Source of the DNA: Deltaproteobacteria bacterium
GTDB lineage: Bacteria > Myxococcota_A > Polyangia > Fen-1088
Assembly: GCA_033763315.1 (NCBI GenBank)
Contig: JANRKS010000032.1
Coordinates: 288,001 to 352,000, forward strand
Direction of reading: 5' to 3'
Length of the DNA stretch: 64,000 nucleotides
Both the position numbers and the translations under genes were made by a program. Shown here piece by piece: positions 39,001 through 55,151 of this stretch (its first letter is position 1; each line of letters begins with the position of its first letter). A model generated the notes under the pieces. That model saw only the letters and a list, made by a program, of their open reading frames with translations, did no database searches and was not told the origin of the DNA.

Positions 39001-39820
39001 ACTCAAGGGCGTGTACCCGCGCATCCTTGAGCACGAAAAGTATGGTGAGCAAGCGCGGCAGATCTTTGCCGACGCGAACGCGTTGTTGGATCAGATCATC
39101 GCGAACAAGCTGATTCGTGCCAGCGGCGTGTATGGCATCTTTGCTGCAAACGCTGTGGGCGACAGCGTGGAGCTTTACACCGACGAGACCCGCACGAAAG
39201 TGCACGACCATTTGCACTTCTTGCGGCAACAGAACGACAAGCCAGGCGAGCCTTGCCGCAGCCTTGCCGATTTCGTGGCACCTAGGAGCACAGGTCTGCG
39301 AGATCACGTGGGCGGCTTTGCGGTCACGAGCGGCTTGGGCCTCAAAGAGTTGGTGGAAGGCTACAAGGCCCGTCACGACGACTACAACGCGATCATGGCC
39401 GAAGCGGTGGCCGATCGTTTGGCAGAGGCGTTCGCCGAATGTTTGCACAAGCGCGTGCGGGATGAATGGGGCTATGGCGCAAACGAAGGCTTGGCGCCCG
39501 AGGATCTCATCGCCGAGAAATACCGAGGCATTCGCCCGGCGGCCGGTTATCCCGCGTGCCCTGATCACACGGAAAAGGGCACCTTGTGGCGCCTGCTAAA
39601 TGTGGAAGCAAACACGGGCATCACGCTGACGGAATCGTACGCCATGTGGCCGGGTTCAAGCGTCAGCGGGCTTTACTTCGCCCACCCGGCGTCTCGTTAC
39701 TTCAGCTTGGGTAAGATCGATCGCGATCAGGTGGAGGATTACCACCAACGCAAAGGCCTCACGGTGGCCGAAGTGGAGCGATGGCTGGGCCCGAACTTGA
39801 ATTACGATCCGGGCCGTTAA
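36014..39820 (+). CDS. metH: Cobalamin-dependent methionine synthase
   Basis: IDGAMGT; GGCCG; [10 protein letters not shown]; DVHDIGKN (B12-binding); [12 protein letters not shown]. Confidence 0.98.
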
Positions 39821-39877
39821 CATCATATTGGGCCTGTTTGAGCGTCTCGGTGCCGTAACACGGACCCGTTGGGCGAC

Positions 39878-39911
39878 GCGGGATGTCGGGCAAATTCCCG
39901 CCGCATCCCGC
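39878..39911 (+). terminator. GC-rich hairpin after metH (possible terminator or stabiliser)
   Basis: GCGGGATG...CATCCCGC with inner CGGG/CCCG; no U-tract. Confidence 0.45.
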
Positions 39912-39957
39912 TGGGTTAACTTGGGTGCTTTAGCGGTGGGCAGGAAATGCCGAATGC

Positions 39958-42477: not shown

Positions 42478-42540
42478 GGCGGGGCTACCGCTTCGCATCC
42501 TCTTGAAGGATAACGCGACAGCAAAGGCGCTCTGCGTCTA

Positions 42541-42579
42541 GCCTTGCATTTTTAGTTATCGACACTAAAAATACAAGGC
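42541..42579. promoter_or_regulatory. 16-bp inverted repeat abutting the ATPase start codon
   Basis: GCCTTGCATTTTTAGT-N7-ACTAAAAATACAAGGC with 1 mismatch; ATG at 42580. Confidence 0.7.
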
Positions 42580-43737
42580 ATGTGGTCCCGCCTCGCTGCT
42601 ACCCGTCTCGCCTCTTTGGCCCATACCTTCCCCGCCGTTCTGGTTTTGGGGCCGCGCCAAGTGGGGAAGACTACGCTGGTGAGACAGACATTCCCTGACC
42701 ACCCCTACGTGGATCTTGAACGTCCGGTGCTCACGGATCTATTCGCCCAGGATCCCGAGTTTCATATCAAGGCCCGGGCCACTCCGAATCTCATATTGGA
42801 CGAGGCACAAGCGGTGCCGTCGGTGTTCGCGGCGTTGCGGGGCATTATCGACGAACAGCGAAAGCTAAACGGACGCTTTATCCTGCTGGGGTCGGCGCAG
42901 CCAATGCTTGTGCGAGGCGTTTCGGAATCGCTTGCTGGCCGTGTAGGCATTTTGGACTTGGCGCCTCTGACCGTTGCGGAAGTCTCAACCTTCGGGAACA
43001 TCGCCCCTGCGGATGTGTGGTTACGCGGCGGGTTCCCTGACGCCTTGGCCGCGGCGGATTTTCGAGTTTGGTGGGAATCGTATCTTCGCAGCTACCTCGA
43101 GCGCGATTTGCCCCAACTTGGATTGAACGTCGATCCCGTTTTTTTGCGACGTATGTTGACCATGCTGGCCCATAGCCAAGGGGGCGTGCTTAAGGTTTCA
43201 TCCCTGTGCAATTCGTTGGGCGTAAGCCGGGGCGTTGTGGAGCGATGCTTGGATGTCTTCGAGGGAACCTACATCCTGCGTCGTTTGCCGCCGTTTTTTC
43301 GTAACGTGGGAAAGCGGCTCGTAAAGGCGCCGAAGGTTTATCTTCGCGACTCGGGATTGCTGCATCACCTGCTGAACATCAGCAGCCAAAGTGAACTTGA
43401 TGCGCATCCCATCCGTGGCGCTTCATGGGAGACCTTTGTTCTCGAAGATCTGCTGCGCAGGGAACAACTGGCACATCCTTCGTCGCAAGCCTTCTTCTGG
43501 CGAACGGCCGCGGGCGCCGAAATCGATCTCGTTCTCGACCGAGGCAGCACCGTGGCGGTTGTGGAGATCAAGTCGGCCCAAGTCGGCAGTGCCCGCGACG
43601 TTCGGTTTTTGAGTGACGCCATGATCGATGTTGGCGCGAAGCAAGGATACTTTGTGGATCAAGGCCCTGATCGCTTTGCACTTGCACCACACATCGAGAG
43701 GCTGGGTTTTGAAGTGGCCAGCGCTTGGCTGCCGTGA
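42580..43737 (+). CDS. AAA_14 ATPase with DUF4143 and C-terminal PD-(D/E)XK-like motif
   Basis: GPRQVGKTT; ILDEAQ; ESLAGR; GGFP; KRLVKAPKVYLRDSG; WETFV; FWRTAAGAEIDLV..VEIK. Confidence 0.92.
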   Translation: MWSRLAATRLASLAHTFPAVLVLGPRQVGKTTLVRQTFPDHPYVDLERPVLTDLFAQDPEFHIKARATPNLILDEAQAVPSVFAALRGIIDEQRKLNGRFILLGSAQPMLVRGVSESLAGRVGILDLAPLTVAEVSTFGNIAPADVWLRGGFPDALAAADFRVWWESYLRSYLERDLPQLGLNVDPVFLRRMLTMLAHSQGGVLKVSSLCNSLGVSRGVVERCLDVFEGTYILRRLPPFFRNVGKRLVKAPKVYLRDSGLLHHLLNISSQSELDAHPIRGASWETFVLEDLLRREQLAHPSSQAFFWRTAAGAEIDLVLDRGSTVAVVEIKSAQVGSARDVRFLSDAMIDVGAKQGYFVDQGPDRFALAPHIERLGFEVASAWLP

Positions 43738-43764
43738 TGAGTGTTAATCCAGCCTTTTGACGGC

Positions 43765-44160
43765 CTATGTTGCTCTGGCCGCGCTGTTCTTGCGAACCCA
43801 ATCGGCCAAAGCCTCCTCGCTCAGCTCGCCTGCAGCCAGGGAGAGGATTGTTGCCGTCGCCATCGCCTGTGTGGCCGTCAGTCGATAGCCGTTGAGGTAA
43901 AGCAACAAGCCCAATGCCAAGAACGCCGCGCGTTTGTTCCCGTCCACAAAAGCATGATTTTGCGAAAGGCCACTGGCGTAAGCCGCGGCCAATTGAGCCG
44001 CATCGGGTGTGCCGTAAGACGCGAGGTTCAGAGGTCGGACAAGGGCGGAATCTAACAAACCTTCGTCGCGCAACCCACTCGCGCCTCCATGCTCAGCCAG
44101 GCTCTCATCGTGAAGGATGAGCAAGGCCTGCTTATCGATCCAGCGCCAGGAAGCCTTCAC
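43765..44160 (-). CDS. doc: Death-on-curing (Doc/Fic) toxin
   Basis: HGGASGLRDEGLLDSAL; HAFVDGNKRAA Doc motif; start overlaps the antitoxin stop. Confidence 0.92.
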   Translation of the reverse strand: MKASWRWIDKQALLILHDESLAEHGGASGLRDEGLLDSALVRPLNLASYGTPDAAQLAAAYASGLSQNHAFVDGNKRAAFLALGLLLYLNGYRLTATQAMATATILSLAAGELSEEALADWVRKNSAARAT

Positions 44161-44381
44161 TTTGCGAGCACGCGGAAGGTGTCCCGAAACTCTTTCATGA
44201 ACTTTCGCCCTTCCTCCACCTGTTCTTCGAAATCAGGTTGGTAGGGAGACAACGCAATTCCCGCGGGAGTATCGGTCAGGTACAGGGTGTCACCCTTCTC
44301 AATCTTGAGCCGCGCCAACACCTCTTTGGGAAGGATCACACCTACCGAATTGCCGATCTGCGTAAGTTTGAGAGTCGTCAT
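44157..44381 (-). CDS. AbrB/MazE-type antitoxin paired with Doc
   Basis: MTTLKLTQIGNSVGVILPKEVLARLKIEKGDTLYL; true start is internal to the listed 307-aa ORF. Confidence 0.92.
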   Translation of the reverse strand: MTTLKLTQIGNSVGVILPKEVLARLKIEKGDTLYLTDTPAGIALSPYQPDFEEQVEEGRKFMKEFRDTFRVLAK

Positions 44382-44399
44382 AACGATGTCCGCTCTTAA

Positions 44400-44408
44400 A
44401 TTATAACA
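44400..44408 (-). promoter_or_regulatory. Extended -10 promoter element of the TA operon
   Basis: TGTTATAAT on the minus strand, 19 nt upstream of the antitoxin ATG. Confidence 0.6.
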
Positions 44409-44525
44409 CGCGTATGAACAGAGGGAGCGAAGGCGACTGCCGCCTGGCCGTTGCCAAACTGTAAGCAGATTGCCTTCATGGGGGGTTAAGTCGGGTGACG
44501 GAGCTGCCGATGGTGGGGGGCGAGG

Positions 44526-47500
44526 GTGCAGCCAGCACACACAAAGCCACGGCGTTTCGGTGGCCGCTTTGAGACCGAATATGAGGTTGGTCACGGCGGC
44601 ATGGGGGCGGTGTACCGTGCGCGCGACTTGCAGACGGGCCAGCCGGCGGCGGTAAAGGTGTTGTTCGAGCGCGAAGGGCCAAACGCGGAGCGCTTCGTGC
44701 AAGAGGCGGTGATGTTGGCGGAGCTTTCGCATCCGGCGATCGTGCGCTACCTGGGCCACGGCGTGGCGCCCTCGGGCGAGCATTACCTGGCGATGGAATG
44801 GCTTGAAGGCCGCACGCTCGAGGATTACCTGACGGGCGGCGCTGTGCCGGTGTTGCAAGCGGTGCAATTGACGGCGCGTGTGGTGGATGCGTTGGCGGTG
44901 GCACACCGGCGCGGCGTGGTTCACCGTGACATCAAGCCGGCAAACCTGCTGCTGCCGGAATCGCGCATCTCGCACGCGAAGCTGCTGGATTTCGGCATCG
45001 CACGGCGTTTGTTCGACACGCGCCGGATCACACGTACGGGCGCCACGCTGGGCACGCCGATGTACATGTCGCCCGAGCAAGCGCGCGGCTTGACCGACGT
45101 GGACGCGCGTTCGGACGTGTTCTCGATGGGCTGCGTGTTGTTCGAGTGTTTGGCGGGGCAGCCGCCTTTCACGGGTGAAACACCGTTGGCCGTGTTGGCG
45201 AAGATCTGCTTGGAAGTGGCGCCGGACGTGCGTCGTTTCCGCCCTGAAGTGTCACCGGCGTTGGCGGCGCTTGTACGGGGCATGCTGGAAAAAGACCCGG
45301 AAAAACGCCCGGGCGACACGGCCGAACTGGCACGCATGTTGGCGGTGATGGCCGATGAATTGCGTACGGGTGTGCCCGCCAACGATGGCCACGCGGCGGA
45401 TTACAAACCACTGCCGATCGTCACACCGGGCGAACAGCGTTTGTTCTCGGTTGTGTTGGTGCAGCTGCCACGCAAGGGACCAAAGCAAAGCCCTGCCAGC
45501 CGCAGCTCTTCAAGCTTGCTGGTGGCCACCACAAACATTACAGGCGTTGTGAATCCGCCCACGCCTGTGTCGCTCAAAGCGATTCGCGGCTTGTGGCGCA
45601 AGGGCGTAAACACACCGCTGCCGCCGACGCCCGGCGCCGCCACGCCGGGCGATATGCCGGCGGTGGAGAGCGAGCAACTGCCGCCGGATCTCTACGACGA
45701 TCAAGTGATGGCGCGCGTGCGCAAATCGGCTTTGCCGTTCGGCGTGCAAGTGGATCGCTTTTACAACGGCTCATTGGCGCTCACGAATGCGAACGGCGGC
45801 AGCAGCGCGGAGCAAACCTTCGAGATGGCCCGCTGCGCGCTTGAAATGCGGCGTTTGCTTCCTATGGCGGCGTTTGCTGTGGCCACGGGCCGCGCGGATG
45901 GCGACGCGCCGATGCCAGTGGGCAAGGTGCTGGAGCGCGCGGGCCGCTTGCTGGCGGGCGCACCACCCAGCGTGATTCGCCTCGACGATCTTTCACATGA
46001 ACTGCTGGCGAGCCGCTTTGAAACATCGGCGGTGCCGGGCGCGGATCAAGCGGCACGGTTGCTGTTTGAAAAAGGTTTGCGCGAGCCGCCGCGCACGTTG
46101 TTCGGCAAACCCACGCCCTGCATCGGCCGCGATCGTGAGCTTTCGAGCCTGCAAAGCCTGTTTGCCGAAGTGCTTGACGACAGTGTCGCACGCGCCGTAA
46201 TCGTCACAGCACCGGCAGGTGGCGGTAAATCGCGCGTTCGTCACGAATTGATGGAACGCCTTTACTCACGCGGCACCAACTTCTCGCTGCTGGCGGGCCG
46301 TGGTGAATCGATGCGTGCGGGCAGCGCGTGGTCGTTGCTGGGTGGCGCGCTTCGTGCGGCGGCCGACGTCAGTGGCTATGAAACGCTAGACGTGCAGCGC
46401 CTGCGTTTTGGTGCGTACTTCGGGCGTCGCTTCACAAAGCCAGAAGATCGCCAACGCGTGGTTTCGTTCTTGGGCGAGATCGCGAACATCCGTTTTCCAG
46501 ACGACGACTTTCCGATGTTGCGTTCCACGCGCCAAGATCCGCGCGCGATGGCAGATCAAACGCGCGCGGCGTGGCTCGATTGGGTGGAAGCGGAGCTGGA
46601 TCACGCACCGGTGGTGCTGGTGTTTGAGGATCTGCACTGGGGTGACGCGGCCACGTTTGGTTTGGTGGACGCGGCCTTGCGCCTTTACGCAGAGAAGCGC
46701 TTGCTTGTGATGGGCTTTGCGCGCCCCACACTCGACGAGAAATACCCGGGCCTGTGGAATGGGCGCAACGTGGAGCGTTTGGGTTTGCCACCGCTTTCCG
46801 CGAAAAACGCGCGGCGTTTGGTGCAAGCGGCGCTGCCCACGGCGAGCGATGAACAAGCCGATGCGCTGTGCGCGCGTGCCGATGGTAACCCCTTCTTTCT
46901 TGAAGAACTCTTGCGCGCTTCGGTTGAGCGCGGCAACGACGTGGCGCAAGCGTCGCCTGCCTCGATCCTCAGCATCATTCAAGGCCGCTTCGATAGCTTA
47001 GGCGATGGCGTAAAGCGTGTGCTGCGCGCGGCCAGCGTGTTCGGCATGTCCTTCCGCCGCAGCGGCGTGGGCACGCTGATCGGCGAGTCGAACCTCAAAG
47101 ACGTTGAAGAGTATCTGGATGTGCTAGTGGCGCGCGAAATTGTGTACCGCCGCGCCTCGGGTTCGGGGCGTGAGTACATGTTCCGGCACGCGTTGGTGCG
47201 CGAGGCCGCGTACGACACGCTGACGGATCGCGATCGCAAGGTGGGGCACTTACTTGCGGGTGAATTCTTAGAGCGCCTCGGCGCTGAGAACCCAGGCGAG
47301 TTGGCAGAGCACTTCGAATGCGCCGAGGAGATGAAGCGCGCGGGCCACTGGCATTACGTGGCGGGGCAACGTGCGCTGGCGTCGGTGGAGTTAGAGAATG
47401 CGATCAAGCACTGCGAACGCGCGGTGAAGTGCGGCGTGGAGGGGGAAGAGCTGGGGTTGGTGAAGTTGTTGGAGGCGCGGGTGCAGATCTGGAGGGCCAA

Positions 47501-48572
47501 CTACGAAGATGCTCGCTTAGCCGGAGTGGAGGCGACGAAGGTGCTCGATGGCGTTGCCAACATGGAGGCTTGGGGAGAGGTAGTGGTAGCCCTCGGCCAT
47601 CTTCGATGGGACATGTTTCAGAACGAAAATGAAGAGGCATACCTCGAAGCGCTCCAGCGTCTTCAGCAACATGTATCAAAGGATTTAGGATGGGCAATTT
47701 GGGCGCGCAGTGTACTTCGCGCTTGTTCGTTTTGGGCCGCTGCGCAACAAGCTAGCGACGCACTCAACTCTTCCGGGTTGTTGGCAGAGGCATTAGCCTC
47801 CGCCGAGCCAGCTGTCTCAGCATCAGCTTCTTGCTTTCAATACTACGTCATGTGTCGCCTCCGTAGATGGGAGGAGGCGGAGCATCATTGCCATAGGGCT
47901 GTCGCTTGTTTTGAAGCCGCTGGCAACTTTCAGGAAGCGGCCTCGAATCAGCTCAATTTGGTAAGTTACTTGGCCGATCTCGCACGTTATGACAAGGCGC
48001 TTTTGTGTGCAGAAGAGTGCCTCCGAAAAGTACGCAAAAATGGAATTCCATTCCACGAGAGTCTGGCCCTCGCGAACTTAGCTGACATCTATTGGGAACT
48101 AGGTCGAGTAGATGACTCAGCGAGGGCTGCCCTGGAAGCTTGCGACCTGGCACAGCGGCACGGCATTCTCCGGGTTGCCGTTTTTGGATGGGTTGCGGCC
48201 GCGCGAGCACTTTCGGAGCAAGGGCGTCACGATGAAGCGCGGTGCCTTCTGTTAAAGGCAAAGGACGGGTCGAACGGAAGTCCGGAACTGCATGCATTTC
48301 TGAGCGCGGTTCAAGGCATGGAATATTTGGCGCAAAGTCAGTTGTTGCTCGCCGTGGCCTGTGCACATGACGCCGCTGTTGCCCTTTGTGCGGATTCTGT
48401 CCAGCAGCTATTCGTCAGGGTTGCAATCGCAACAATACAAAAGACCTGCGGCAGCCCAGCGGCCTTTGAGTCCGCAGTTGCTGAGGCGCAGAACTTTCAA
48501 TCGTTATTGTCCCCGCCGAACGACGACACGTGTCGGTGCGAGTCGTTCAAGCGGCTTAGACGGCTATTGTAG
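44526..48572 (+). CDS. Cytoplasmic Ser/Thr kinase + degenerate cyclase-like + STAND NTPase + TPR-like repeats
   Basis: GHGGMG; HRDIKPAN; DFG; GTPMYMSPE; GRDRELS; APAGGGKSR; FEDLHW; GNPFFLEEL; FRHALVREAAYD; helical repeat tail; no clear TM segment. Confidence 0.92.
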   Translation: MQPAHTKPRRFGGRFETEYEVGHGGMGAVYRARDLQTGQPAAVKVLFEREGPNAERFVQEAVMLAELSHPAIVRYLGHGVAPSGEHYLAMEWLEGRTLEDYLTGGAVPVLQAVQLTARVVDALAVAHRRGVVHRDIKPANLLLPESRISHAKLLDFGIARRLFDTRRITRTGATLGTPMYMSPEQARGLTDVDARSDVFSMGCVLFECLAGQPPFTGETPLAVLAKICLEVAPDVRRFRPEVSPALAALVRGMLEKDPEKRPGDTAELARMLAVMADELRTGVPANDGHAADYKPLPIVTPGEQRLFSVVLVQLPRKGPKQSPASRSSSSLLVATTNITGVVNPPTPVSLKAIRGLWRKGVNTPLPPTPGAATPGDMPAVESEQLPPDLYDDQVMARVRKSALPFGVQVDRFYNGSLALTNANGGSSAEQTFEMARCALEMRRLLPMAAFAVATGRADGDAPMPVGKVLERAGRLLAGAPPSVIRLDDLSHELLASRFETSAVPGADQAARLLFEKGLREPPRTLFGKPTPCIGRDRELSSLQSLFAEVLDDSVARAVIVTAPAGGGKSRVRHELMERLYSRGTNFSLLAGRGESMRAGSAWSLLGGALRAAADVSGYETLDVQRLRFGAYFGRRFTKPEDRQRVVSFLGEIANIRFPDDDFPMLRSTRQDPRAMADQTRAAWLDWVEAELDHAPVVLVFEDLHWGDAATFGLVDAALRLYAEKRLLVMGFARPTLDEKYPGLWNGRNVERLGLPPLSAKNARRLVQAALPTASDEQADALCARADGNPFFLEELLRASVERGNDVAQASPASILSIIQGRFDSLGDGVKRVLRAASVFGMSFRRSGVGTLIGESNLKDVEEYLDVLVAREIVYRRASGSGREYMFRHALVREAAYDTLTDRDRKVGHLLAGEFLERLGAENPGELAEHFECAEEMKRAGHWHYVAGQRALASVELENAIKHCERAVKCGVEGEELGLVKLLEARVQIWRANYEDARLAGVEATKVLDGVANMEAWGEVVVALGHLRWDMFQNENEEAYLEALQRLQQHVSKDLGWAIWARSVLRACSFWAAAQQASDALNSSGLLAEALASAEPAVSASASCFQYYVMCRLRRWEEAEHHCHRAVACFEAAGNFQEAASNQLNLVSYLADLARYDKALLCAEECLRKVRKNGIPFHESLALANLADIYWELGRVDDSARAALEACDLAQRHGILRVAVFGWVAAARALSEQGRHDEARCLLLKAKDGSNGSPELHAFLSAVQGMEYLAQSQLLLAVACAHDAAVALCADSVQQLFVRVAIATIQKTCGSPAAFESAVAEAQNFQSLLSPPNDDTCRCESFKRLRRLL

Positions 48573-48637
48573 GCTCGGTTAAGTACGAGCGCGCTGCCAC
48601 AATCCCTGGCCAGGCGGCGAGGACAAGCCCATCGCGT

Positions 48638-48756
48638 GGGCCAAAGGGCCCCGCAAAACCTACGCCCGTGCCATACGTCACTTGTTTGACCATCGTCAAT
48701 TTTTTGACTTGCCAAAGTAGGCCAACGGATGGTCTGATAACGGCACTCGGGTTCTA
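48638..48756 (+). promoter_or_regulatory. Candidate sigma54-type promoter of the peptide gene, with IHF-like site and upstream palindrome
   Basis: CGGCAC-N5-TTCTA at 48741-48756 (-24 good; -12 is CT instead of GC). GTCAATTTTTTG IHF-like site at 48695-48706. GGGCC-N4-GGCCC at 48638-48651. Confidence 0.5.
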
Positions 48757-48792
48757 ACCAAACCTGAACCAATCACCCAACCAGGAGTGGCC

Positions 48793-48867
48793 ATGAAAAT
48801 TAAGAGTAAGTCCGGCGTACGAGCTGGCGGATTAACGTCAAGCAATCACAACCGTACCCTTTTGTAG
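48793..48867 (+). CDS. 24-aa peptide MKIKSKSGVRAGGLTSSNHNRTLL (not in the ORF track)
   Basis: AGGAG RBS 5 nt before the ATG; unstructured A/C-rich leader; TAG stop; strong terminator ~20 nt downstream. Confidence 0.85.
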   Translation: MKIKSKSGVRAGGLTSSNHNRTLL

Positions 48868-48886
48868 TTCCTAGGCAGCTGGTGGG

Positions 48887-48908
48887 AGGCCCCTACGGGG
48901 GCCTTTTT
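48887..48908 (+). terminator. Intrinsic terminator of the peptide gene
   Basis: AGGCCCC-TACG-GGGGCCT followed by TTTTCTTGTTT. Confidence 0.9.
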
Positions 48909-49025
48909 CTTGTTTCCTTAGCTGTAGGCAAATGGGTGCACAGGTGCGTCACGCAGTGTGAACACCTGCCCGCCGCTTTATGGTTCCCCGCTGCCGTCTG
49001 CAGATCTCAGCGGCCCTAGAAGATT

Positions 49026-49623
49026 TCACTTTTTTGCGCTTCTGGCACCTAACCACGAGTCGGTGTCGCCTCCAATGTCGAAAGCGCGCGCGAAAATGCC
49101 ATCGATGTCCATCACCGCGCCAGCCTGCAGGGTGAGTCGCTCACCGGCCCCCGCTGAGCGGTACGTCCAAGTGCCTCCGTCATCCCGCCCGAAGTGCTCG
49201 ATTCTGGCCTCGGTTTGCGACACCAGGACGTAGTCGCGAAGAGACGCAAGGCGCTGGTAGCCGTCCGACTTGAGGCCACGATCGTACGATTCCGTGGATG
49301 CCGACAGCACTTCCACGATTACCTGAGGGTTCACAAGCACGTCGTTGGTGCCGGTCTCTAATTCGGGCGGGCCGCAAACGACGCTAAGGTCGGGATAGAC
49401 GTACCGTTCACCCGCCAGCGCCACCTTCTGGTTGGAAGAAGACGAAACAGCCCTTGTCGTCCAGCGCCGCACTTAGCGCCGCGCTCACTCGGGCGGTAAG
49501 CAAATTGTGGCGAGGGGTTCCGCCGGCCATCGCGAACACTCCGCCGCGGAAATACTCGTGACGCCCGGACCGGGACCGCTCCCAATCTAGGTATTGAGCA
49601 GGCGCGAATTCTGACTTTTCCAC
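49026..49623 (-). pseudogene. Uma2-family endonuclease, frameshifted
   Basis: N-half (YLDWER..RHEYFRG.VFAMAGGTPRHNL) and C-half (YVYPDLSVVC..IVEVLSASTESYDRGLK..DYVLVSQ) are in different frames, breaking at TCTTCTTC near 49435-49442. Confidence 0.85.
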
Positions 49624-49771
49624 GAGGCGCGTCCCGAACGAAAGGTACCACAAGGGTCTTCTGCCGATTCGGGACGTTGGTGCCGGATCCTCAGCTAGGT
49701 TCAAAACATCGCCCGCGCGTCAATTCATGCTTGAGCGGTGCCTTGAACCGACCTAACTAGATACCTCGCCC

Positions 49772-51190
49772 ATGAGCATGCCTGACGCCACTGATGCCGC
49801 ATTGTCTGCCTCCACGGAAGTGGGCGGGGGCGCGGCTACGAGCGCCGCCACCGCGGTGCTGGTACCGGCTGGCAATGCGGCCTTGGGGGGGCGAACGCGC
49901 TCTGAACTAGGGGCGGCGCCGCCGTTCAGCGTGGGTAGCCAAGGGGTGCTTTTCGGGCGGAAACCGCATGGGCACGCGCCGCATGTGTTTGCGCTTTCGC
50001 ATCCGCAGGCTTCGGGCCAGCACGCATGGATTCGTTCTGTGGAAGGTTTCTGGCTGGCTGACAACAACAGCACCAACGGTACGTTTCTCAACGGCCGGAG
50101 GTTGTCGGCTCCCGCGCCTTTGCGCGACGGCGATTGGATCTATGCGGGCGGCGAGGCGTTTGTGTTTCGCTGGGCCAACCCGCAGGAGCTTGAGGCCATT
50201 GATGGCGAGCTGTTGCAGCCGTTTGGTCCGGTGCCCACGCGGCAACCGCGGTTCGCACGTCTGTTGCGTCGTTTGCGCTTTTTGGCGGAGACCACAAGCG
50301 AGCTGCTGTTGGTGGGCGAAACGGGGGTGGGCAAGGAAGTGTATGCGCGCGCGGTTCACGAATACAGCCAACGCAAAGGCGCATTCGTTGCCATCAATTG
50401 CGCGGCCATTCCTGCTGAATTGGTGGAAAGCGAACTGTTCGGCTTCATGCGCGGCGCGCACTCGCAGGCGAAAGAGGGCAAGGCCGGTGTGATCGCCGAA
50501 GCCCATGGCGGCACGTTGCTGTTGGATGAAATTGGCGACATGCCCGCCACCGCGCAAGCCAAGCTGCTGCGGTTCGTGCAAACCAAAGAGGTTTGGCCTT
50601 TGGGCGCCACCAGTGCACGCAAAGTGGACGTGCGCATCATTGGCGCCACCAGCCACTTGCTTGCCCAAACAGGTGCCCCCGGTGTGCGAGAAGAATTGAT
50701 GGCACGCCTTGGCGCCAACCCGCCTGTGTTGCCACCCTTGTGTGATCGTCGCGAAGACATCGGCGAATTGATCGCCCACTTCATGGGAAAGGCAGTCAAG
50801 CCCATCGACGCCGCTGCCTTTCTGGCCTTGATGACATACCCCTGGCCCCGCAACGTGCGCGAGCTTGAGGCCGTGATCAAAGAGGCATTGGTGTTCAGCA
50901 AAGGCGAAGCCACTGTGACGCGTGAACATCTGCCACCCTTTGTCACGCAAGCGACACCACCCACAGCTCCACAAACTGTGGCACCTCCGCCGCAGATGCG
51001 CCCCGTGGCGCCCACCGAAGAAGTACGCCGCGTGCCTCGCGCAATGCCTTCAAGAGAAGAGCTAGAGGCTTTGCTGGAGCAATACCGCGGCAACGTGAAT
51101 CACGTGGCCCGCAAGCTAGAGCGCGAGTGGAAGGTTGTGAAACGCGCGGTAGATCGATACGGAATCGATCTCACTCGGTTTCGCACGTGA
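49772..51190 (+). CDS. FHA-domain sigma54-type enhancer-binding protein with atypical loop 1 (GAHSQA)
   Basis: FHA motifs FGR, SGQH, STNGT. AAA+ motifs GETGVGKE, INCAAIP, ESELFG, LLLDEIG, WPRNVREL. C-terminal Fis-like HTH (GNVNHVARKL). Confidence 0.93.
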   Translation: MSMPDATDAALSASTEVGGGAATSAATAVLVPAGNAALGGRTRSELGAAPPFSVGSQGVLFGRKPHGHAPHVFALSHPQASGQHAWIRSVEGFWLADNNSTNGTFLNGRRLSAPAPLRDGDWIYAGGEAFVFRWANPQELEAIDGELLQPFGPVPTRQPRFARLLRRLRFLAETTSELLLVGETGVGKEVYARAVHEYSQRKGAFVAINCAAIPAELVESELFGFMRGAHSQAKEGKAGVIAEAHGGTLLLDEIGDMPATAQAKLLRFVQTKEVWPLGATSARKVDVRIIGATSHLLAQTGAPGVREELMARLGANPPVLPPLCDRREDIGELIAHFMGKAVKPIDAAAFLALMTYPWPRNVRELEAVIKEALVFSKGEATVTREHLPPFVTQATPPTAPQTVAPPPQMRPVAPTEEVRRVPRAMPSREELEALLEQYRGNVNHVARKLEREWKVVKRAVDRYGIDLTRFRT

Positions 51191-51194
51191 CGTT

Positions 51195-54100
51195 TTACAA
51201 GAGCAAGACGCGCAGGTCCGGCGTATTCAAGTCGATGCCCAGCTCGCGCGCTTGCCGAACAACGTCTCGGTTTTCGGGGATGTTGTGCAAGTAGGTGAGT
51301 TGGTACTTGGGCGCGGTGATCCTGGTCGTGAGGTGGGCAAGGCGTTGGGCATTGCCTCGTGCAGTGGCGACGGCGTCTTCGTGGCGGCCGACGGCTAGAA
51401 GGCAATCGACGTAGGTGGAGCGGGCGAGCATTTCGCCGTCCATGAGTGGCTTCTTTGCGAATACCGCCTCCATAGCGACGCGGGACATGGCTATGGCGGA
51501 CGTGATTTGCCTCGAAGCCAAGAGAACTTTTGCGCGTACGGAAGCCGCGAGAGGAACAAACGCAGTATGATTTTTGGAGGCCTCGACACTCTCGGCCGAA
51601 GCAAGCTGGGCGCTCGGAACATCACCGAGGTTAAGATAGGCCTGCGCCATGACGGCCATGCAGTACCAGATGTTGTCGCCGTTGCATTCGCGCAACTTGC
51701 TTAGAACACTGTGGCCCTCTCTCAAGGTGCGTCCAGGATCACCGGTTCGAAGATAGATTGCGAGTAGATTTGCGTCCACACCCAGTTGAAGCGAGAGCAA
51801 GTTGAGTGACAGGGTCTTTTGCCGGATCTGGTTCAGACCATCCTGGGCTCCTCGATAGTCTCCAAGATCAGCAAGGGCGACGGACGCGTAGAAATCAGCG
51901 TTGAGTTCATATTTCAAATCTCCCGCCGATCGAAAAGCTGCGACGGCCTGGGTGAACGCGGTGATTGCTTTGAGTGGATCACCACCAGATAAGATTCTCG
52001 TACCGTCTGACACGAGCCAGTGACCGAGAGTGCATTCGTCGAGCGTCTCCGTCCGAAATTGCAACAAAAAGGCCATTGCTGGCTCATCGCCCAAGAAAAT
52101 GCACGCAGTTACTGCCGCCGCAAGAGCTTTCTGCGTATCCAATGCCGCCAGGCTGTCTAGCTCAGCTGACAGCCGTGTTGCGAAGGTCACGGCATCTCGA
52201 TGTTTGCTGAGGTTGATGAGGCACACCATAAAATGCAAGTACCCGGTTCTAGCGGCGTTTGGCGGCAACCGGTTGAAAGCTTCATGAAAGTAGTTTTCGG
52301 CTTGCTCGAAGTCTCCTCTCCAAGTGAGGGCTTCGGCTTGCAGCATTCTCAGCGAGCCGTGTAGTTCTCCTTGAGCACCGTTTGCCAACCCGCGCTGTCC
52401 GAATGCGATGGCCTGATTGACATCCGCCCCAGCCATTGCGTCCTTCGCGGCTGCGCAGCACCACAGTGCTGCCTTGTCGCCGCTGCCGCCTTGTTCAAAA
52501 TGCTCGACGAGTTCAGAAGGAACAGGAGGGAACGAATCAGCCTCTAACCATAGCCCTGCGGCCAAGTGTGCGGCTTTCCGATCTGCTTGAGTGATCATGT
52601 CGTAGGCTGCATCGCGCAATAGCGCGTGGCGAAATGCAAATTCATTCTGGTCGTTATGCTCCCGCATATAGATAATTTCCTTGTCCGATAGGAGATCAAG
52701 GGATCGCTCTATTGACGTCGAGGCGTCAGGCTTAAGAAGAGCGTTCAAACCCGCAAAGGCGAACCGTTCACCAAACACGCTGGCTGCGCGAAGTACTCGC
52801 TTGGCCTCCTCGCCCAGTGCATCAAACCGCGCTTGGATGACGCCCAACACACTGCTCGGCGCGGCGTCTTCACGCTCCAATGCTGAGCGCACATCCTGCG
52901 CGCGGAGCAACTCTTCCAAGAAAAATGGGTTACCATCGCAGTGCCGCGTAAGCCGCGCCACAAGCTCTGGCGCCGCCTCCGGCAGAACCTCACTTACGAG
53001 CTGTGTGAGCGCGCTGGCTGGGAGCGGGCGCAAGTTCACGTGCTCAAGCGACCGGGCTCTCCACAACCTTGGAAAGCGCATCTCGATCTCTGGCCGAGCA
53101 AACGCTGCCACGAATATTGGCCGATCGCGATAGACGCGCATCGCATCGTCGATTGCCTGAACGCTCGGAGAATCACCCCAATGAAGATCTTCTAGCACGA
53201 GCACCAAGGGCTCGTCTGCAGACACATGCTTCACGAACTCAAGCCACGCGAGCTTCGTTTGATCGCCCATGACGTGGGGATCTTTTCGGGCCGTCTGAAG
53301 CGATAAGAGGCCATCGTCTGAGAATGGCACACCCATCAATTCGCCCAAAAACGCAATCGTGCGGCGCTTGTGTTGCGGATCTGACTCTGATTCGTGGATG
53401 TGCCTGCCAATGTGCTTCAGAACCAGTGCCTGCTGTGTTGTTCGATCTTCGCTTCCGTGGATCTGTGCCTTCGAACGCAGCAGCGCCGCGACCACGCCGA
53501 GCGGCGCGTTGCTGCGCAACGGATCACCGCGCGCGATCAAGAAGTGAAGGCTGGGACGCTGGGCCTGCAGCGCTTGCATGAGCTCGAACCGGACGCGTGA
53601 CTTGCCACCGCCTGCGGGTGCCGTGACCAATATCGCGCGTGCCCCTGGTTCAATTACACATTCAGCAAAGATGGCTTGCAGATTGGCGAGTTCGCGCTGC
53701 CGGCCGACGCATGGCAAGACTTTGCCCAGCACCGTTCGTGGCGGTTCGAGTGAGTGCCGCTCTGCCTGCAACGTGAATACTTCGCCTTCTTCCGTGAGCT
53801 TCGATGCCACCTCGAACCGAGCTTGCAGCAGCGCCGCCACCGTTTCATCCACGCGGATCTCACCCTCTTGCGTTGAGCTTAGAAGTGCGGTGGTCACGTC
53901 AGCCAGATCTTGGTTACCGACGTCACTGAATTTGCGGCCCAGCCCTAGAGCGAACCGGCGATCTCCTGAAACTGTTCTAAGTGCCAACGCGCAACGGCCC
54001 GCATTCACCGCTTGATCCATCGGCGAATCTCCCGGCACCGTAACGAGCACCGTGCCGCCCAACAAGGTTTGCGCGCTTTTGGTCCAGGGCGCCACGCGCG

Positions 54101-55151
54101 ACAGAGTTTCTGAGACTTGCGTGGTCACAGGATGTTGATCGACTTCGCTACTCGCAGGTGAGATCAGTAGCAGTGCGTGCACGCGCCGTTCACCCGAGCC
54201 AATGCTTGACGGTTGCTGACGCGGCGGGGCCTCAGGGCGTGCAAGCAAGGTTGGTAGTACCCGTTCGAGGTTTTGCACCACAAGTTTTGCGTTGGGTGTA
54301 CGGCGTTCGCGATCTTTGAGCAGCAAGCCCGCGAGCACGTCCTGCAGGCCTGGATCAACGTCAGGGCACAGTTGAGCCAATGGCACATGATCGCTAAAAC
54401 AAATCTTTGCCAGCGTTGCCAACGCAGAATCGCCCACGAACAAAGGCTTTGCGAGCAAACACTCAAGCAGCACGCAGCCCAACGAAAACAGGTCGGCACG
54501 CCCATCGAGATCAGCTTCACCGCGCGCCTGTTCGGGCGCCATATACATCGGCGTGCCCACCCAGTGGCCCGTACCTGTGACACGCAGAAAATCAACGTGA
54601 CGGGCGATCCCGAAATCAAGCACCGTGACTTGATTGAGATCGTCATCCACCACCATGAGGTTTTCCGGCTTGATGTCGCGGTGAATGATGCCGTTGGCGT
54701 GCGCCATGGCCAAAGCCGAAGCCACGCGCATACCCACGCGCGCCGCATCCGCTTGTGACAGGGGCCCCTGCCGCAAGCGTTGCTTCAAGGTTTGCCCGCG
54801 CAGCAGAGCTGTGGCCACATAGCGCTCACCCGCTGCACTGACGCCATGATCGATGTAGGCCACGATCGCAGGGTGCGAGAGCGTGGCCAAAAGCGCGCCC
54901 TCGCGCGAGAACCGCTCCGCCAGGCCGGTGCCAGCGAAGATCTTCAGCGCCACATCGTGGCCCGTGGCGGTGTCCTCGGCCACCACAACGTGCCCCGACG
55001 AACCGCTGCCTAAGGCACCGCGCACACGAAAGCGGTCGGCGAATAGAGTGCCCGCCGCCAGCAGCCGCCCCAACGGCGCATGCCGCACGTCGGCCGGCTC
55101 TGTGCCTGCTGTGCCAGTCGTTCCGCGCTCGGGTATGACGAGCCGTGCCAC
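51195..55151 (-). CDS. Cytoplasmic Ser/Thr kinase + degenerate cyclase-like + STAND NTPase + TPR-like repeats
   Basis: GSGSSG; HRDIKPEN; DFG; GTPMYMAPE; GRQRELA; APAGGGKSR; LEDLHW; GNPFFLEEL; [12 protein letters not shown]; helical tail ending YLHNIPENR. Confidence 0.92.

Follow-up and report, generated by a model that had tools for sequence, protein, structure and literature searches.

The window, that is, the whole 64-kb stretch of DNA analysed here, carries on its plus strand an open reading frame (ORF) of 24 codons plus stop at 48793–48867, with an ATG at 48793 and a TAG ending at 48867, and its product, MKIKSKSGVRAGGLTSSNHNRTLL, has a net charge of +5 across 24 residues. An AGGAG ribosome binding site (RBS; 48783–48787, +) lies 5 nt 5' of the ATG and is preceded by an A/C-rich leader, aaccaaacctgaaccaatcacccaacc (48756–48782, +; A+C 0.74 against a window background of 0.49 ± 0.10), while a hairpin (48884–48907; 10 pairs, 6 of them G-C, loop of 4) and a T-run follow the stop codon and together resemble an intrinsic terminator (48884–48917, +). 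The gene upstream (44526–48572, +) encodes a protein of 1348 aa composed of a Ser/Thr kinase, an AAA_16 (STAND-type NTPase) domain and TPRs, in which no membrane segment was found, and ends 220 nt 5' of the peptide gene. On the other side, a split Uma2 gene stands between the peptide gene and the gene for an activator of 472 aa with an FHA domain and a sigma54-interaction AAA+ domain (49772–51190, +), which is followed by a second kinase-AAA_16-TPR protein of the same paralog group (1318 aa; 51195–55151, −).

An earlier note, made from the sequence alone, had read this stretch as a hidden 24-aa peptide gene with complete expression signals, forming a dedicated transcription unit. The AGGAG, the A/C-rich leader and the hairpin with its T-run are all present where the note had placed them, but no promoter was identified (a scan for sigma70-type promoters at the gene gave 0 sites, and the best sigma54-like site reaches 2.9 bits), so that neither the completeness of the signals nor a dedicated unit is supported, and the gene may be read through from the kinase gene. 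A search for sequencing runs covering 48000–49500 listed none, RNA runs included. Taken singly, the ORF, RBS, leader and hairpin are none of them above chance. There are 98 ORFs of ≥ 20 aa in 46000–52000; the folding energy of the hairpin is −27 kcal/mol, that of shuffles −20.4 ± 3.0 (z = −2.2), and 4 of 200 shuffles equal it; and the terminator scan found 1 site, shuffles averaging 1.4. Runs resembling CCAACCAA also occur 5' of the orthologous and paralogous genes of the genus and of one gene of a further genome (G012). The ORF stands above chance because of homology, namely repeat units in paralogs, syntenic orthologs and differences that are mostly synonymous, and on these grounds the hidden gene is genuine.

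Syntenic orthologs of the peptide gene are found in two congeneric genomes (G001 and G002), 3' of the orthologous kinase gene, which is the upstream neighbour in all three species. Between the window and G001, 6 codons are identical, 12 differ synonymously and 6 change the amino acid, and 16 of the 24 nucleotide differences fall on third codon positions; the synonymous bias that the earlier note had proposed to look for is thus there (12 synonymous versus 6 changing codons), and the window ORF is under coding constraint. Among the orthologs, nucleotide identity is 65–73% in the ORF, 57–64% in most flanks and 63–77% over the 30 nt of RBS and leader. All three single-unit orthologs have an RBS (AGGA or AGGAG in the two other species) and a hairpin with T-run, the stem sequences being unrelated. 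They further share an invariant GACTTGC about 80–90 nt 5' of the ATG, part of a TTGACTTGCC box (48704–48713, +) that is a candidate promoter or operator element; with ≤ 1 mismatch this 10-mer occurs 5 times in the window against 5.3 expected, which is not above chance.

At E ≤ 10 the peptide matches 0 families, and no match to Pfam, NCBIfam or Rfam exceeds a curated threshold. It corresponds to exactly one unit of a tandem-repeat family, a point that the earlier note overlooked, with a repeat unit of approximately VK[ST]x[VI]KAGG[LF]-x2-4-NH[NS]R-x-L. The A, G, N and H columns are invariant in the unit alignment and all present in the window peptide, which also carries the family motif [KR]-A-G-G-[LF]-x2-4-N-H-[NS]-[RQE] after a basic, strand-like stretch with alternating residues. 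A further mark of the family would be at least two tandem units; the window gene has one, as do both orthologs. The bipartite organisation described in the earlier note is real in so far as its two halves, basic KxxxxVRAGG and NHN, are what the family conserves as motifs, but the RAGG does not fit the canonical double-glycine rule. The same genome encodes two other small proteins, each of six tandem units, and residues 3–23 of the window peptide match the six units of such a paralog at 67% identity (E 1.4e-4 each); a unit profile run over the genome gave 13 matches at 3 loci, and its sole targets are the three peptide genes.

A word-index search with the six-unit paralog returned 5 matches among 8000 low-complexity candidates, and an exhaustive profile search was used instead. 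With a two-unit profile (A2) built without the window peptide, this search retrieved 1811 cluster representatives at E ≤ 1e-3, of which 426 reach E ≤ 1e-10. The labelled records are mostly from Acidobacteriota, and also from Polyangia and Verrucomicrobiota, which bears out the look-alikes in myxobacteria and Acidobacteria that the earlier note mentions. All 10 clusters whose names were looked up are blank or 'hypothetical protein', neither Pfam nor NCBIfam holds a model of the family, the six-unit paralogs gave just sub-threshold, chance-level matches to family models, and no paper describing KAGG...NHN peptides was found in the open full-text literature searched. Taken together, 48793–48867 is very probably a real gene of the KAGG...NHN repeat family. 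The earlier note had named a lack of homologous ORFs, or conservation at the RNA level only, as grounds for giving the peptide up; orthologs, paralogs and the 1811 representatives were found, and conservation is at the amino-acid level, not that of RNA alone. That the region is a small RNA with an incidental ORF is therefore almost certainly wrong: the short unit closed by a terminator would suit such an RNA, as would two weak Rfam matches over the terminator, yet the amino acids are conserved through wobble changes, the unit is homologous to protein repeats, and the Rfam scores lie far under gathering. The two matches, from a scan of 48300–49300, were to Atu_C8 (21.3 bits, gathering 50) and sbrA (18.8 bits, gathering 45), and were judged to be chance.

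Members of the family have from 1 to > 13 units, each 18 to about 29 residues long, strongly basic and without acidic residues, and the number of units differs between orthologs (6 vs 4). The second G of the 'GG' is not invariant, with KAGQ, KAGA and KAAG in one subfamily. Between KAGG and NH lies a hypervariable spacer, of which 131 proteins hold 236 distinct versions, and identical spacers are found in 45 of 248 within-protein unit pairs versus 27 of 20000 pairs between proteins; judged from these sequences, the variation looks like that of a specificity determinant. Multi-copy precursors, such as yeast alpha-factor and cyanobactin PatE, yield several peptide copies from tandem near-identical units, and the tandem KAGG units, numbering 6 in one ortholog and 4 in another, could likewise give several copies of one peptide; unlike in those precursors, no protease site of a recognised type flanks them, and processing would be hypothetical. 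As a separate observation, the conserved Ser/Thr of each unit, which might be thought of as a kinase substrate or FHA ligand, is mostly Ser in the units of the window genus, and phosphothreonine is what FHA domains prefer.

The regular units also allow a structural reading, the main rival to a signalling role, although we hold it to be rather unlikely. Here, each unit would be a rung of a three-sided beta-solenoid with corners at GG, NHN and [ST]-[GN] and alternating V/L/A/F inside; the multi-unit proteins would be beta-helices, and the 24-mer, acting by stacking only, on itself or on paralogs, would build fibrils or act as a cap, like rungs of the bactofilin or HET-s type, perhaps after type-I export. 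The invariant G and N/H stand at fixed spacing, as turns would need. AlphaFold2, run without an alignment on the own-genome protein of 6 x 18 aa, predicted three short strands per unit (mean pLDDT 82.8, pTM 0.71), and the best PDB likeness of this model is the bactofilin BacA (2n3d; TM 0.56/0.61, rmsd 4.2 Å), with tapirin, eIF2B, enzymes of the left-handed beta-helix type and an ice-binding protein next in rank. For the 6 x 21-aa paralog, the ESM Atlas model (pLDDT 0.66) similarly resembles beta-helical clusters (SufBD core, ice nucleation). However, no Foldseek match was obtained at E ≤ 0.001, a natural three-unit subfamily modelled from a 15-row alignment came out at pLDDT 41.8 and without secondary structure, and solenoid models of near-perfect repeats tend to be over-confident, so the predicted fold is not robust. 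Further, the units range from 18 to about 29 residues, a single one cannot fold alone, and a structural role leaves unexplained why each locus has its private kinase and transcription factor. The family shares with beta-solenoids and amyloid signalling systems (bactofilin, HET-s, BASS) units of 18–21 residues with fixed Gly/Asn, a triangular beta-helix predicted for six-unit members and, at the window locus, a STAND-type NTPase-TPR protein adjoining the peptide gene. In the BASS/HET-s systems, as described in excerpts of 10.1101/2020.01.06.895854, the NLR-like protein carries at its N-terminus the motif that its effector has at the C-terminus. Membership in BASS was considered and rejected because no neighbouring protein carries the motif, the unit profile finding only the three peptide genes in the genome.

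Sigma54 promoters are present at the multi-unit paralogs. Sites resembling TGGCAC-N5-TTGCA lie 55–164 nt 5' of 10 of 17 peptide genes, both own-genome six-unit paralogs included, and represent 9 distinct sites, with 0.012 expected by chance per upstream region. A weight matrix built from these 9 sites gives them scores of 14.7–20.0 bits. For the window gene, no such promoter (TGGCAC-N5-TTGCW; −24 GG/−12 GC) was found, the best site being TGGTCTGATAACGGCA at 48730 with 2.9 bits, a score reached or exceeded at 226 sites in 128 kb; the two single-unit orthologs likewise have no convincing sigma54 promoter. A reading of the window gene by eye, as GGCAC-N5-TT and TGG-N10-GC, was dropped because the matrix gives these only 2.9 and 0.3 bits. 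One might take the window gene for a relic, left over from a multi-unit gene while its copy of the module decays and no longer having a role of its own, and its one unit against six in the paralogs, the absence of a recognisable sigma54 promoter, the split Uma2 gene between it and the activator, and the state of the activator at the orthologous loci, where it is cut down to 76 aa (G002) or could not be located within 10 kb (G001), all point that way. We nevertheless regard this as quite improbable, as three species retain the frame, the start, the RBS, the family-invariant residues and a terminator that has diverged in sequence, together with an excess of synonymous changes.

The earlier note had also seen no C39 peptidase/ABC exporter or modifying enzyme nearby and had suggested processing in trans as one way out. 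By tblastn, the 64-kb window indeed holds no C39/ABC exporter, HlyD, stand-alone TPR gene or JmjC-type enzyme, and the combination of TPR protein, HlyD and C39-ABC is present at another locus of the same genome (C21). Processing in trans is plausible in that the genome has a single HlyD and C39-ABC pair, located on another contig about 5.5 kb from a six-unit gene. The ABC transporters scanned at family loci have a C39 peptidase domain, and that of the own-genome transporter (Peptidase_C39, 68.9 bits) has DCGPACL, HFVV and DP in register with PCAT1; the Cys and His of the first two motifs we take to be the catalytic residues of PCAT1, and the catalytic motif is, judged from this alignment, intact. 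In 41 relatives, peptide and exporter ortholog occur together in 11, the peptide only in 2, the exporter only in 5 and neither in 23, meaning that the exporter ortholog is missing in 2 of 13 peptide-bearing relatives and present in 5 of 28 peptide-free genomes, counts that are not independent because the genomes are kin.

In several respects these loci resemble those of double-glycine pheromones, class II bacteriocins and microcins (ComC/ComAB, BlpC, colicin V/CvaAB; PCAT1, LahT): small ribosomal peptides with a Gly-Gly some 12–20 residues in, a neighbouring C39-ABC gene, an HlyD adaptor in Gram-negatives, dedicated signal-transduction genes in the locus, and, in the own genome, an exporter peptidase that aligns to PCAT1 and ComA with the Cys/His motifs kept. 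The window peptide does have a Gly-Gly (G12-G13, where Gly-Gly, Gly-Ala or Gly-Ser would end a short leader) closing an N-terminal part of 13 residues, and a transporter with a Cys/His peptidase domain is available to it in trans only. Canonical C39 recognition, as given in excerpts of PMC6363468, relies on hydrophobic residues at −4, −7 and −12, and in the same excerpts a basic residue at −4 or −7 keeps a substrate from being cut by LahT. The window peptide has R, S and K at these positions and the family consensus is K, S/T and G/K, with none of the hydrophobic residues, so by its residues the KAGG/RAGG site breaks the canonical double-glycine leader rule. Also unlike those systems, KAGG peptides have no separate amphipathic leader, a Gly-Gly recurs in every unit, K/R, S/T and K take the place of hydrophobic residues at −4, −7 and −12, the sensors of the loci are Ser/Thr kinases with ECF or sigma54 output instead of histidine kinase and response regulator, and the window locus is without an exporter. 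The loci further share the gene row of the NHLP/Nif11 cassette (TIGR03794 HlyD, TIGR03796 ABC1 with peptidase, TIGR03797 ABC2), consisting of HlyD, a peptidase-ABC of about 910–970 aa and a second ABC of about 700 aa. NHLP models are their best or near-best NCBIfam matches, at scores far under the curated cut-offs (168.7 vs 853.3 and 44–56 vs 156.2), and, unlike in that cassette, the KAGG cargo has no NHLP or Nif11 domain.

Such machinery could also serve warfare. The peptides would then be cationic, unmodified, microcin- or bacteriocin-like weapons exported by C39-ABC/HlyD, with the kinase and sigma modules merely timing production and the window gene an extra toxin allele using the exporter in trans. 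We find this improbable. The peptides are cargo of the exported type adjoining C39-ABC and HlyD genes, the transporter's best NCBIfam likeness is the NHLP bacteriocin export ABC subunit (168.7 vs a cut-off of 853 bits), and the basic, acid-free units with their hypervariable spacer would suit a toxin, but no candidate immunity gene recurs across loci, the peptides lack any hydrophobic or amphipathic stretch that might act on membranes, and the constant partners, a TPR protein and a TPR kinase, suggest recognition, not killing. A further proposal makes the units cores of modified peptides (RiPPs), for example with N-H-N-R hydroxylated by a JmjC-type oxygenase and the window precursor modified in trans. 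JmjC-type enzymes hydroxylate Asn, His and Arg in proteins, and a JmjC_2/Cupin_8 gene directly adjoins the peptide gene at three independent loci (L078 = L115, L113 and L116). Still, it is very unlikely: a JmjC gene is near the peptide gene in just 3 of 51 loci counted, a JmjC protein query gave 0 matches in the own genome (90.85% complete), and no other modifying enzyme recurs, none being encoded in the window.

The partners that do recur, namely TPR kinase, kinase-dependent transcription factor and, at canonical loci, peptidase-ABC exporter, had been overlooked in the earlier note. All three peptide loci of the genome combine a kinase-AAA16-TPR gene, a peptide gene and an FHA-sigma54 activator, activators of the like type adjoining both six-unit paralogs; the window peptide gene is accordingly one that lies beside a TPR-bearing Ser/Thr kinase. 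In 35 loci taken from named records, the neighbours within 8 kb, counted by crude ORF calls and BLAST clusters, include a kinase/TPR-cluster protein in 24 cases, an ECF sigma factor in 13, HlyD in 10 and an ABC/PCAT-cluster gene in 10. Recurrent clusters are kinase/TPR, ECF, HlyD, ABC, activator, JmjC and histidine kinase (minority of loci). In ten loci the peptide gene(s) are followed, usually after a TPR gene, by HlyD; the row runs on into C39-ABC and ABC in 8 of them, and in the other 2 HlyD is the last ORF of the stretch covered. The ECF sigma genes of canonical loci (PF07638; TIGR02999-like, below cut-off) adjoin a membrane Ser/Thr kinase with C-terminal TPRs. For ECF43, a kinase-to-sigma link is established (EcfP/PknT, EcfK/PknS; PMC8999054, PMC7826278, in excerpts); the canonical KAGG loci, which pair an ECF sigma gene with such a kinase, resemble it in this pairing and differ in their peptide and exporter, partners of which those excerpts make no mention, and, at the window locus, in having an FHA-sigma54 activator in place of the ECF factor. 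RRNPP pairs (Rap-Phr, PlcR-PapR, AimR-AimP) offer another parallel, with a short peptide gene directly 3' of a TPR-protein gene, several paralogous pairs per genome and a variable peptide part resembling a specificity determinant; unlike in those pairs, the TPR protein here is a Ser/Thr kinase, membrane-anchored or STAND-type, the hosts are Gram-negative, the peptides have no Sec signal peptide, and TPR binding is only predicted. At the loci of Acidobacteria and at several of Polyangia, a single membrane segment near residue 350–450 precedes the TPRs of the kinase, whose TPR part should therefore be extracytoplasmic. The kinases of the window genus have no membrane segment outside the kinase domain, and therefore could not sense an exported peptide directly. 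A predicted complex between a stand-alone TPR protein (G390; 12-row alignment) and the first 62 residues of the adjacent six-unit peptide scored too low (0.01; mark 0.32) to speak for or against binding.

Being the one-unit form of a family found beside sensor kinases and exporters, the window peptide may therefore belong to an undescribed peptide signalling system. Our preferred reading, to which we assign a probability of roughly 45%, is that a real gene of the family encodes an exported, kinase-linked signal or regulator peptide that is handled in trans; export, the site of cleavage, TPR binding and signalling are inferences, and the signal role by itself is held just as tentatively as the whole. 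The 24-mer would be translated from a short transcript of its own or from one that extends beyond the kinase gene, and the C39-ABC/HlyD exporter encoded at the six-unit paralog locus on the other contig would take it up and possibly cut it. The peptide or its product would then act on the TPR domain in the adjoining kinase as its cognate ligand or regulator, the whole forming a module of peptide signal, kinase and transcription factor.

Extended to the family, this suggests a broader idea that is possible, if doubtful: that Acidobacteriota, Polyangia and some Verrucomicrobiota run an undescribed form of peptide cell-cell signalling, with export by C39-ABC/HlyD/ABC, reading by TPR kinases and ECF/sigma54 output. 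Tandem-repeat peptides would be exported, and perhaps cut into many copies, by this dedicated machine; the TPR ectodomain of eukaryote-like Ser/Thr kinases would read them, and the kinases would turn on an ECF sigma factor or sigma54 activator that in turn drives expression of the peptide genes. The 'dialect' would lie in the hypervariable spacer, and the window gene would supply the smallest ligand, of one unit, with a cytoplasmic STAND-type kinase as its partner.

The analysis shows that an ORF of 24 codons, too short for the cutoff of any gene caller, can nonetheless be a conserved gene, and opens at least 1811 sequence clusters as a family without a name, a Pfam/NCBIfam model or a description in the literature searched. 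A system of peptide quorum sensing, or of regulated peptide warfare, would be made of such parts as its partners provide: TPR sensor kinases, sigma factors or activators that depend on kinases, and a peptidase-ABC exporter. Here they occur in soil phyla that are abundant but little understood, and the sensors are Ser/Thr kinases. To our knowledge, the inputs of such bacterial Ser/Thr kinases and of their ECF sigma factors are mostly unknown, and if the peptide is a kinase ligand, it would provide a testable signal for these kinases and for the ECF sigma factors that they activate.

The 24-codon gene runs on the forward strand from the ATG at 48793 to the TAG at 48865-48867 and encodes MKIKSKSGVRAGGLTSSNHNRTLL. 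The sequence elements described in the earlier note were all found, including an AGGAG (48783-48787, forward strand) five bases 5' of the ATG, a 27-nt leader composed almost entirely of A and C (48756-48782, forward strand) 5' of the AGGAG and, 3' of the ORF, a G+C-rich hairpin (48884-48907, forward strand) followed by a T-run. In folding, the hairpin region gave -27 kcal/mol, compared with -20.4 +/- 3.0 for shuffled sequences (z -2.2). Taken alone, these expression-signal features are weak, since the surrounding 6 kb holds 98 ORFs of at least 20 codons, the terminator pattern was observed once against 1.4 times expected from shuffled sequence and is not rarer than in the shuffles, a scan around the gene found no sigma70-type promoter, and Pfam, NCBIfam and Rfam gave no over-threshold match for the peptide or its region.

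When the window's own genome was searched in six frames, the peptide matched two further loci, each encoding a small protein (134 and 115 residues) built from six head-to-tail copies of the same 18-21-residue unit. Additionally, two other species of the genus carry one-unit genes of 24 and 25 codons (one each), both located a few hundred bases 3' of the orthologous kinase gene. Between the window gene and its ortholog in one of these species (G001), 6 codons are identical, 12 differ synonymously and 6 change the amino acid, and third positions hold 16 of the 24 base differences; the remaining two ortholog pairs show a similar pattern. Nucleotide identity is 65-73% in the ORF and 57-64% in most flanks, with 63-77% in the 30 nt of ribosome-binding site and leader directly upstream. 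The synonymous excess, the third-position bias and the ORF identities relative to the flanks point to the protein, rather than an RNA, as the conserved entity, and on these comparisons we regard the gene as real and constrained. The same pattern of synonymous change contradicts both the view that the gene is a relic and the view that the region encodes an sRNA. All three one-unit genes retain the AGGA(G) site and a hairpin with T-run, the stem sequences being unrelated, and they share an invariant GACTTGC box located about 80-90 nt upstream. Unit number differs between orthologs of one longer paralog, with six units in the window's genome (L080 9754-10158) and four in the G001 counterpart (L067 9883-10152).

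Across 35 aligned units from this genome and its relatives, A, G, N and H are invariant and the consensus is xVKSxxKAGGLxSxNHNRxL. A two-unit profile, built solely from multi-unit proteins and run against 1.84 billion cluster representatives, matched 1811 proteins at E <= 1e-3; of these, 426 reach E <= 1e-10 and 4 reach E <= 1e-30. The 150 matches listed range from 44 to 240 residues, begin with MK and comprise 2 to about 7 units; in the fetched loci the unit number reaches 13-14. Ten clusters were looked up and none carries any name but 'hypothetical protein', and no description of KAGG/NHN peptides was found in the literature searched. The look-alikes that the earlier note mentioned in myxobacteria and Acidobacteria do exist, as neighbours in the ESM Atlas are unnamed clusters from Myxococcota and Acidobacteriota, and 29 of 37 loci confirmed from a pattern scan of species-representative genomes are in Acidobacteriota-labelled records (Blastocatellia, Pyrinomonadaceae, Bryobacterales and others), the other labels being Verrucomicrobiota and Heliomicrobium (2 each) and Polyangia, Myxococcales, 'Proteobacteria' and Acidimicrobiia (1 each). 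By these labels and the Atlas taxa, the window's genome falls within class Polyangia of the Myxococcota. Units were also present in 12 of the 24 other genomes of the window's taxonomic family and in 5 of the 401 genomes of an even phylum sample, the window's own genome included. The spacer from KAGG to NH is hypervariable: 131 proteins contain 236 distinct versions of it, and spacers are identical in 45 of 248 unit pairs within proteins versus 27 of 20000 between proteins. Such a spacer would suit a specificity determinant supplied in several copies; concerted evolution of the repeats would give the same picture.

The units could also form a beta-solenoid with G, N and H at its corners, a structural role that is compatible with export and that we consider unlikely. 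AlphaFold2, run without an alignment on the paralog of six 18-residue units, predicted a regular all-beta repeat in which each unit forms three short strands (pLDDT 82.8, pTM 0.71), for which the closest solved structure is a bactofilin (TM 0.56/0.61), followed by tapirin, eIF2B, left-handed beta-helix enzymes and an ice-binding protein, and the Atlas model of the paralog of six 21-residue units is similar to beta-helical clusters. However, no structural match for the first model was significant, perfect repeats are prone to over-confident solenoid models, and a natural three-unit subfamily modelled with a 15-row alignment gave a disordered fold (pLDDT 41.8).

In window order, the peptide gene follows the gene for a 1348-aa kinase-AAA_16-TPR protein and precedes a split Uma2 nuclease gene (PF05685; 49026-49704, reverse strand, overlapping ORFs of 148 and 98 aa), probably a frameshifted insertion, then the gene for a 472-aa FHA-sigma54 activator and a second kinase gene of the same kind. 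The stretch 36014-55151 includes at least three kinase-AAA_16(-TPR) genes (39958-42477, 44526-48572 and 51195-55151) within about 15 kb, accompanied by a DUF4143/AAA_14 ATPase gene, and a 1268-aa ORF (36014-39820) lies directly upstream of this cluster. Both six-unit paralogs are flanked by such a kinase and FHA-sigma54 activator. At the orthologous one-unit loci the kinase and peptide genes are kept, whereas all that is left of the activator in G002 is an AAA+ piece of 76 residues (L068 9543-9770, reverse strand), and in G001 (L066) no activator was found within 10 kb; the kinase-peptide pair is thus the conserved core here.

Neighbourhoods were compared across 16 further stretches of up to 10 kb on each side (14 from relatives, 2 from the own-genome paralog loci) and 37 named loci, with ORFs called crudely and clustered by BLAST, and recurrent clusters named via Pfam and NCBIfam. 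Within 8 kb of the peptide gene in 35 named loci (two that duplicated relatives' loci were dropped), a kinase/TPR-cluster protein was present in 24, an ECF sigma factor (PF07638) in 13, a HlyD adaptor in 10, an ABC/PCAT-cluster transporter in 10 (with a C39 peptidase domain in the members scanned), a JmjC_2 protein in 2 and an FHA-sigma54 activator in 1. The canonical row in Acidobacteria features an ECF sigma factor, a kinase, the peptide gene(s), a TPR_12/TPR_10 protein (about 370-400 aa), HlyD, a peptidase-C39 ABC transporter (about 910-970 aa) and a second ABC protein. In the kinase of this row, the only hydrophobic segment, near residue 380-430, separates the kinase domain from the TPRs behind it, an arrangement in which the TPR part should face outward. 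Some Polyangia loci feature an ECF-like sigma factor and a membrane kinase with an N-terminal anti-sigma zinc finger; the membrane Ser/Thr kinase at L078 10223-13021 (forward strand) starts with zf-HC2, fusing anti-sigma and kinase functions. A third regulator type adjoining peptide genes is a Reg_prop/Y_Y_Y histidine kinase (L097, L099, L112, L088 and L108), which replaces the usual regulators in a few Acidobacteria loci; a protein of about 220 aa from a recurrent cluster adjoins it in L097, L099 and L112. Judging from these differing regulators (ECF, zinc-finger membrane kinase, Reg_prop histidine kinase), one kind of peptide gene has come to be wired to several different signal-transduction modules.

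With regard to promoters, a TGGCAC-N5-TTGCA-like sequence lies 55-164 nt before the start of 10 of 17 peptide genes from Polyangia and relatives (9 distinct sites), including both own-genome paralogs. The sites match the textbook sigma54 consensus; the search expression was formulated after they had been seen, and it gives 7 matches on both strands of the 64-kb window, equal to 0.012 per upstream region. The nine sites, used to train a matrix, score 14.7-20.0 bits, and no sigma54 promoter was found at the window gene and its two orthologs, where the best scores are 2.9, -4.1 and 4.1 bits and thus at chance level. With no sigma70-type site either, a promoter is missing from what the earlier note had called complete expression signals, and its interpretation is partly supported, for the real peptide gene and not for the completeness of the signals.

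Three tandem copies of the 10-nt word GGGACTCGTT are located at about 9535-9565 of L080 and at the same place in L067; they precede the sigma54 promoters of the six-unit gene and its G001 ortholog by about 100 nt and represent candidate activator binding sites. Three Polyangia loci with an ECF-like sigma factor (L069, L071 and L078) have GTCCGAAT-N3-GCGGATGG in common about 85-105 nt before the peptide start. Common to Acidobacteria peptide genes (L082, L084, L086, L091, L093, L103, L107, L108 and L114) are an A-tract/TTTC...CGTGAT box and a leader GC hairpin (GGCGAT..ATCGCC). In L082 and L084 the box also occurs 5' of the TPR gene, which hints that peptide and exporter operon may be co-regulated.

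A full C39 domain is present in one transporter of the window's genome; the transporter and HlyD genes lie about 5.5 kb from a six-unit gene on a contig other than the window's, with a 405-aa TPR protein and the activator as neighbours. The first 160 residues of the transporter align with the peptidase domains of PCAT1, LahT and ComA, with DCGPACL, HFVV and DP in register, which we take to be the catalytic residues. No match to the transporter, HlyD, TPR protein or JmjC protein was found within the 64-kb window. The same genome has one more Peptidase_C39 match, a weaker one of 42.1 bits, on contig C32 at a distance of about 200 kb from the window (L120); the open frame that holds it is only 200 aa long and shows no evident ABC part. 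Exactly one peptidase-domain ortholog (54-80% identity) was present in each of the five other peptide-bearing genomes queried, and in two relatives, G012 and G390, no more than about 6 kb separates it from peptide genes. Of 41 relatives, 11 have both the units and the exporter ortholog, 2 have units but no ortholog, 5 have the ortholog but no units, and 23 lack both; because these genomes are kin and some of them supplied the unit profile, the counts describe a pattern and are no statistical test. The gene row of peptide, TPR protein, HlyD and C39-ABC, together with this co-occurrence, makes the family members likely cargo of the C39-ABC/HlyD exporter.

Several facts speak against a simple 'double-glycine leader'. 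Passages of one study describe known C39 domains as holding the leader via hydrophobic residues at -4, -7 and -12, and LahT as failing with a charged (basic) substrate residue at -4 or -7 (PMC6363468). In this family position -4 is always K or R, the window peptide having R, S and K at -4, -7 and -12, and the second Gly is replaceable by Q or A in one subfamily. The peptides might otherwise be read as cationic bacteriocins, but no immunity gene recurs in the loci. They could also be RiPPs modified by a JmjC enzyme with the invariant N-H-N-R as target, given that a JmjC_2/Cupin_8 oxygenase gene adjoins the peptide gene in L078 (7677-8954; the same locus as L115), L113 and L116; these are, however, only three independent loci, and the window's genome gave no match to the enzyme.

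The stand-alone TPR protein and the TPR domain of the kinase share one BLAST cluster, and the constant presence of such partners at the loci suggests that a TPR domain recognises the unit. Judged by gene neighbourhood alone, a signal or feedback loop would fit better than a bulk structural protein, given the private kinase and transcription-factor sets of each locus and the dedicated promoters at peptide genes. Since no membrane segment was found outside the kinase domain in the kinases of the window's genus, the peptide of the window module would need to work within the cell or re-enter it. In its working, such a system would be most alike to the double-glycine pheromone and bacteriocin loci of Gram-positive bacteria and to NHLP/Nif11 export cassettes, with a lesser likeness to RRNPP peptide/TPR pairs and kinase-activated ECF sigma factors; it departs from each of the compared systems on a defining point, be it the leader rule, the curated score cut-offs or the type of receptor. 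Passages of two ECF papers link kinases to sigma factors and name no peptide or exporter partner (PMC7826278, PMC8999054). The family is real, widespread and unnamed, with the window gene as its minimal one-unit member and least typical copy, and the family context is suggestive and testable.
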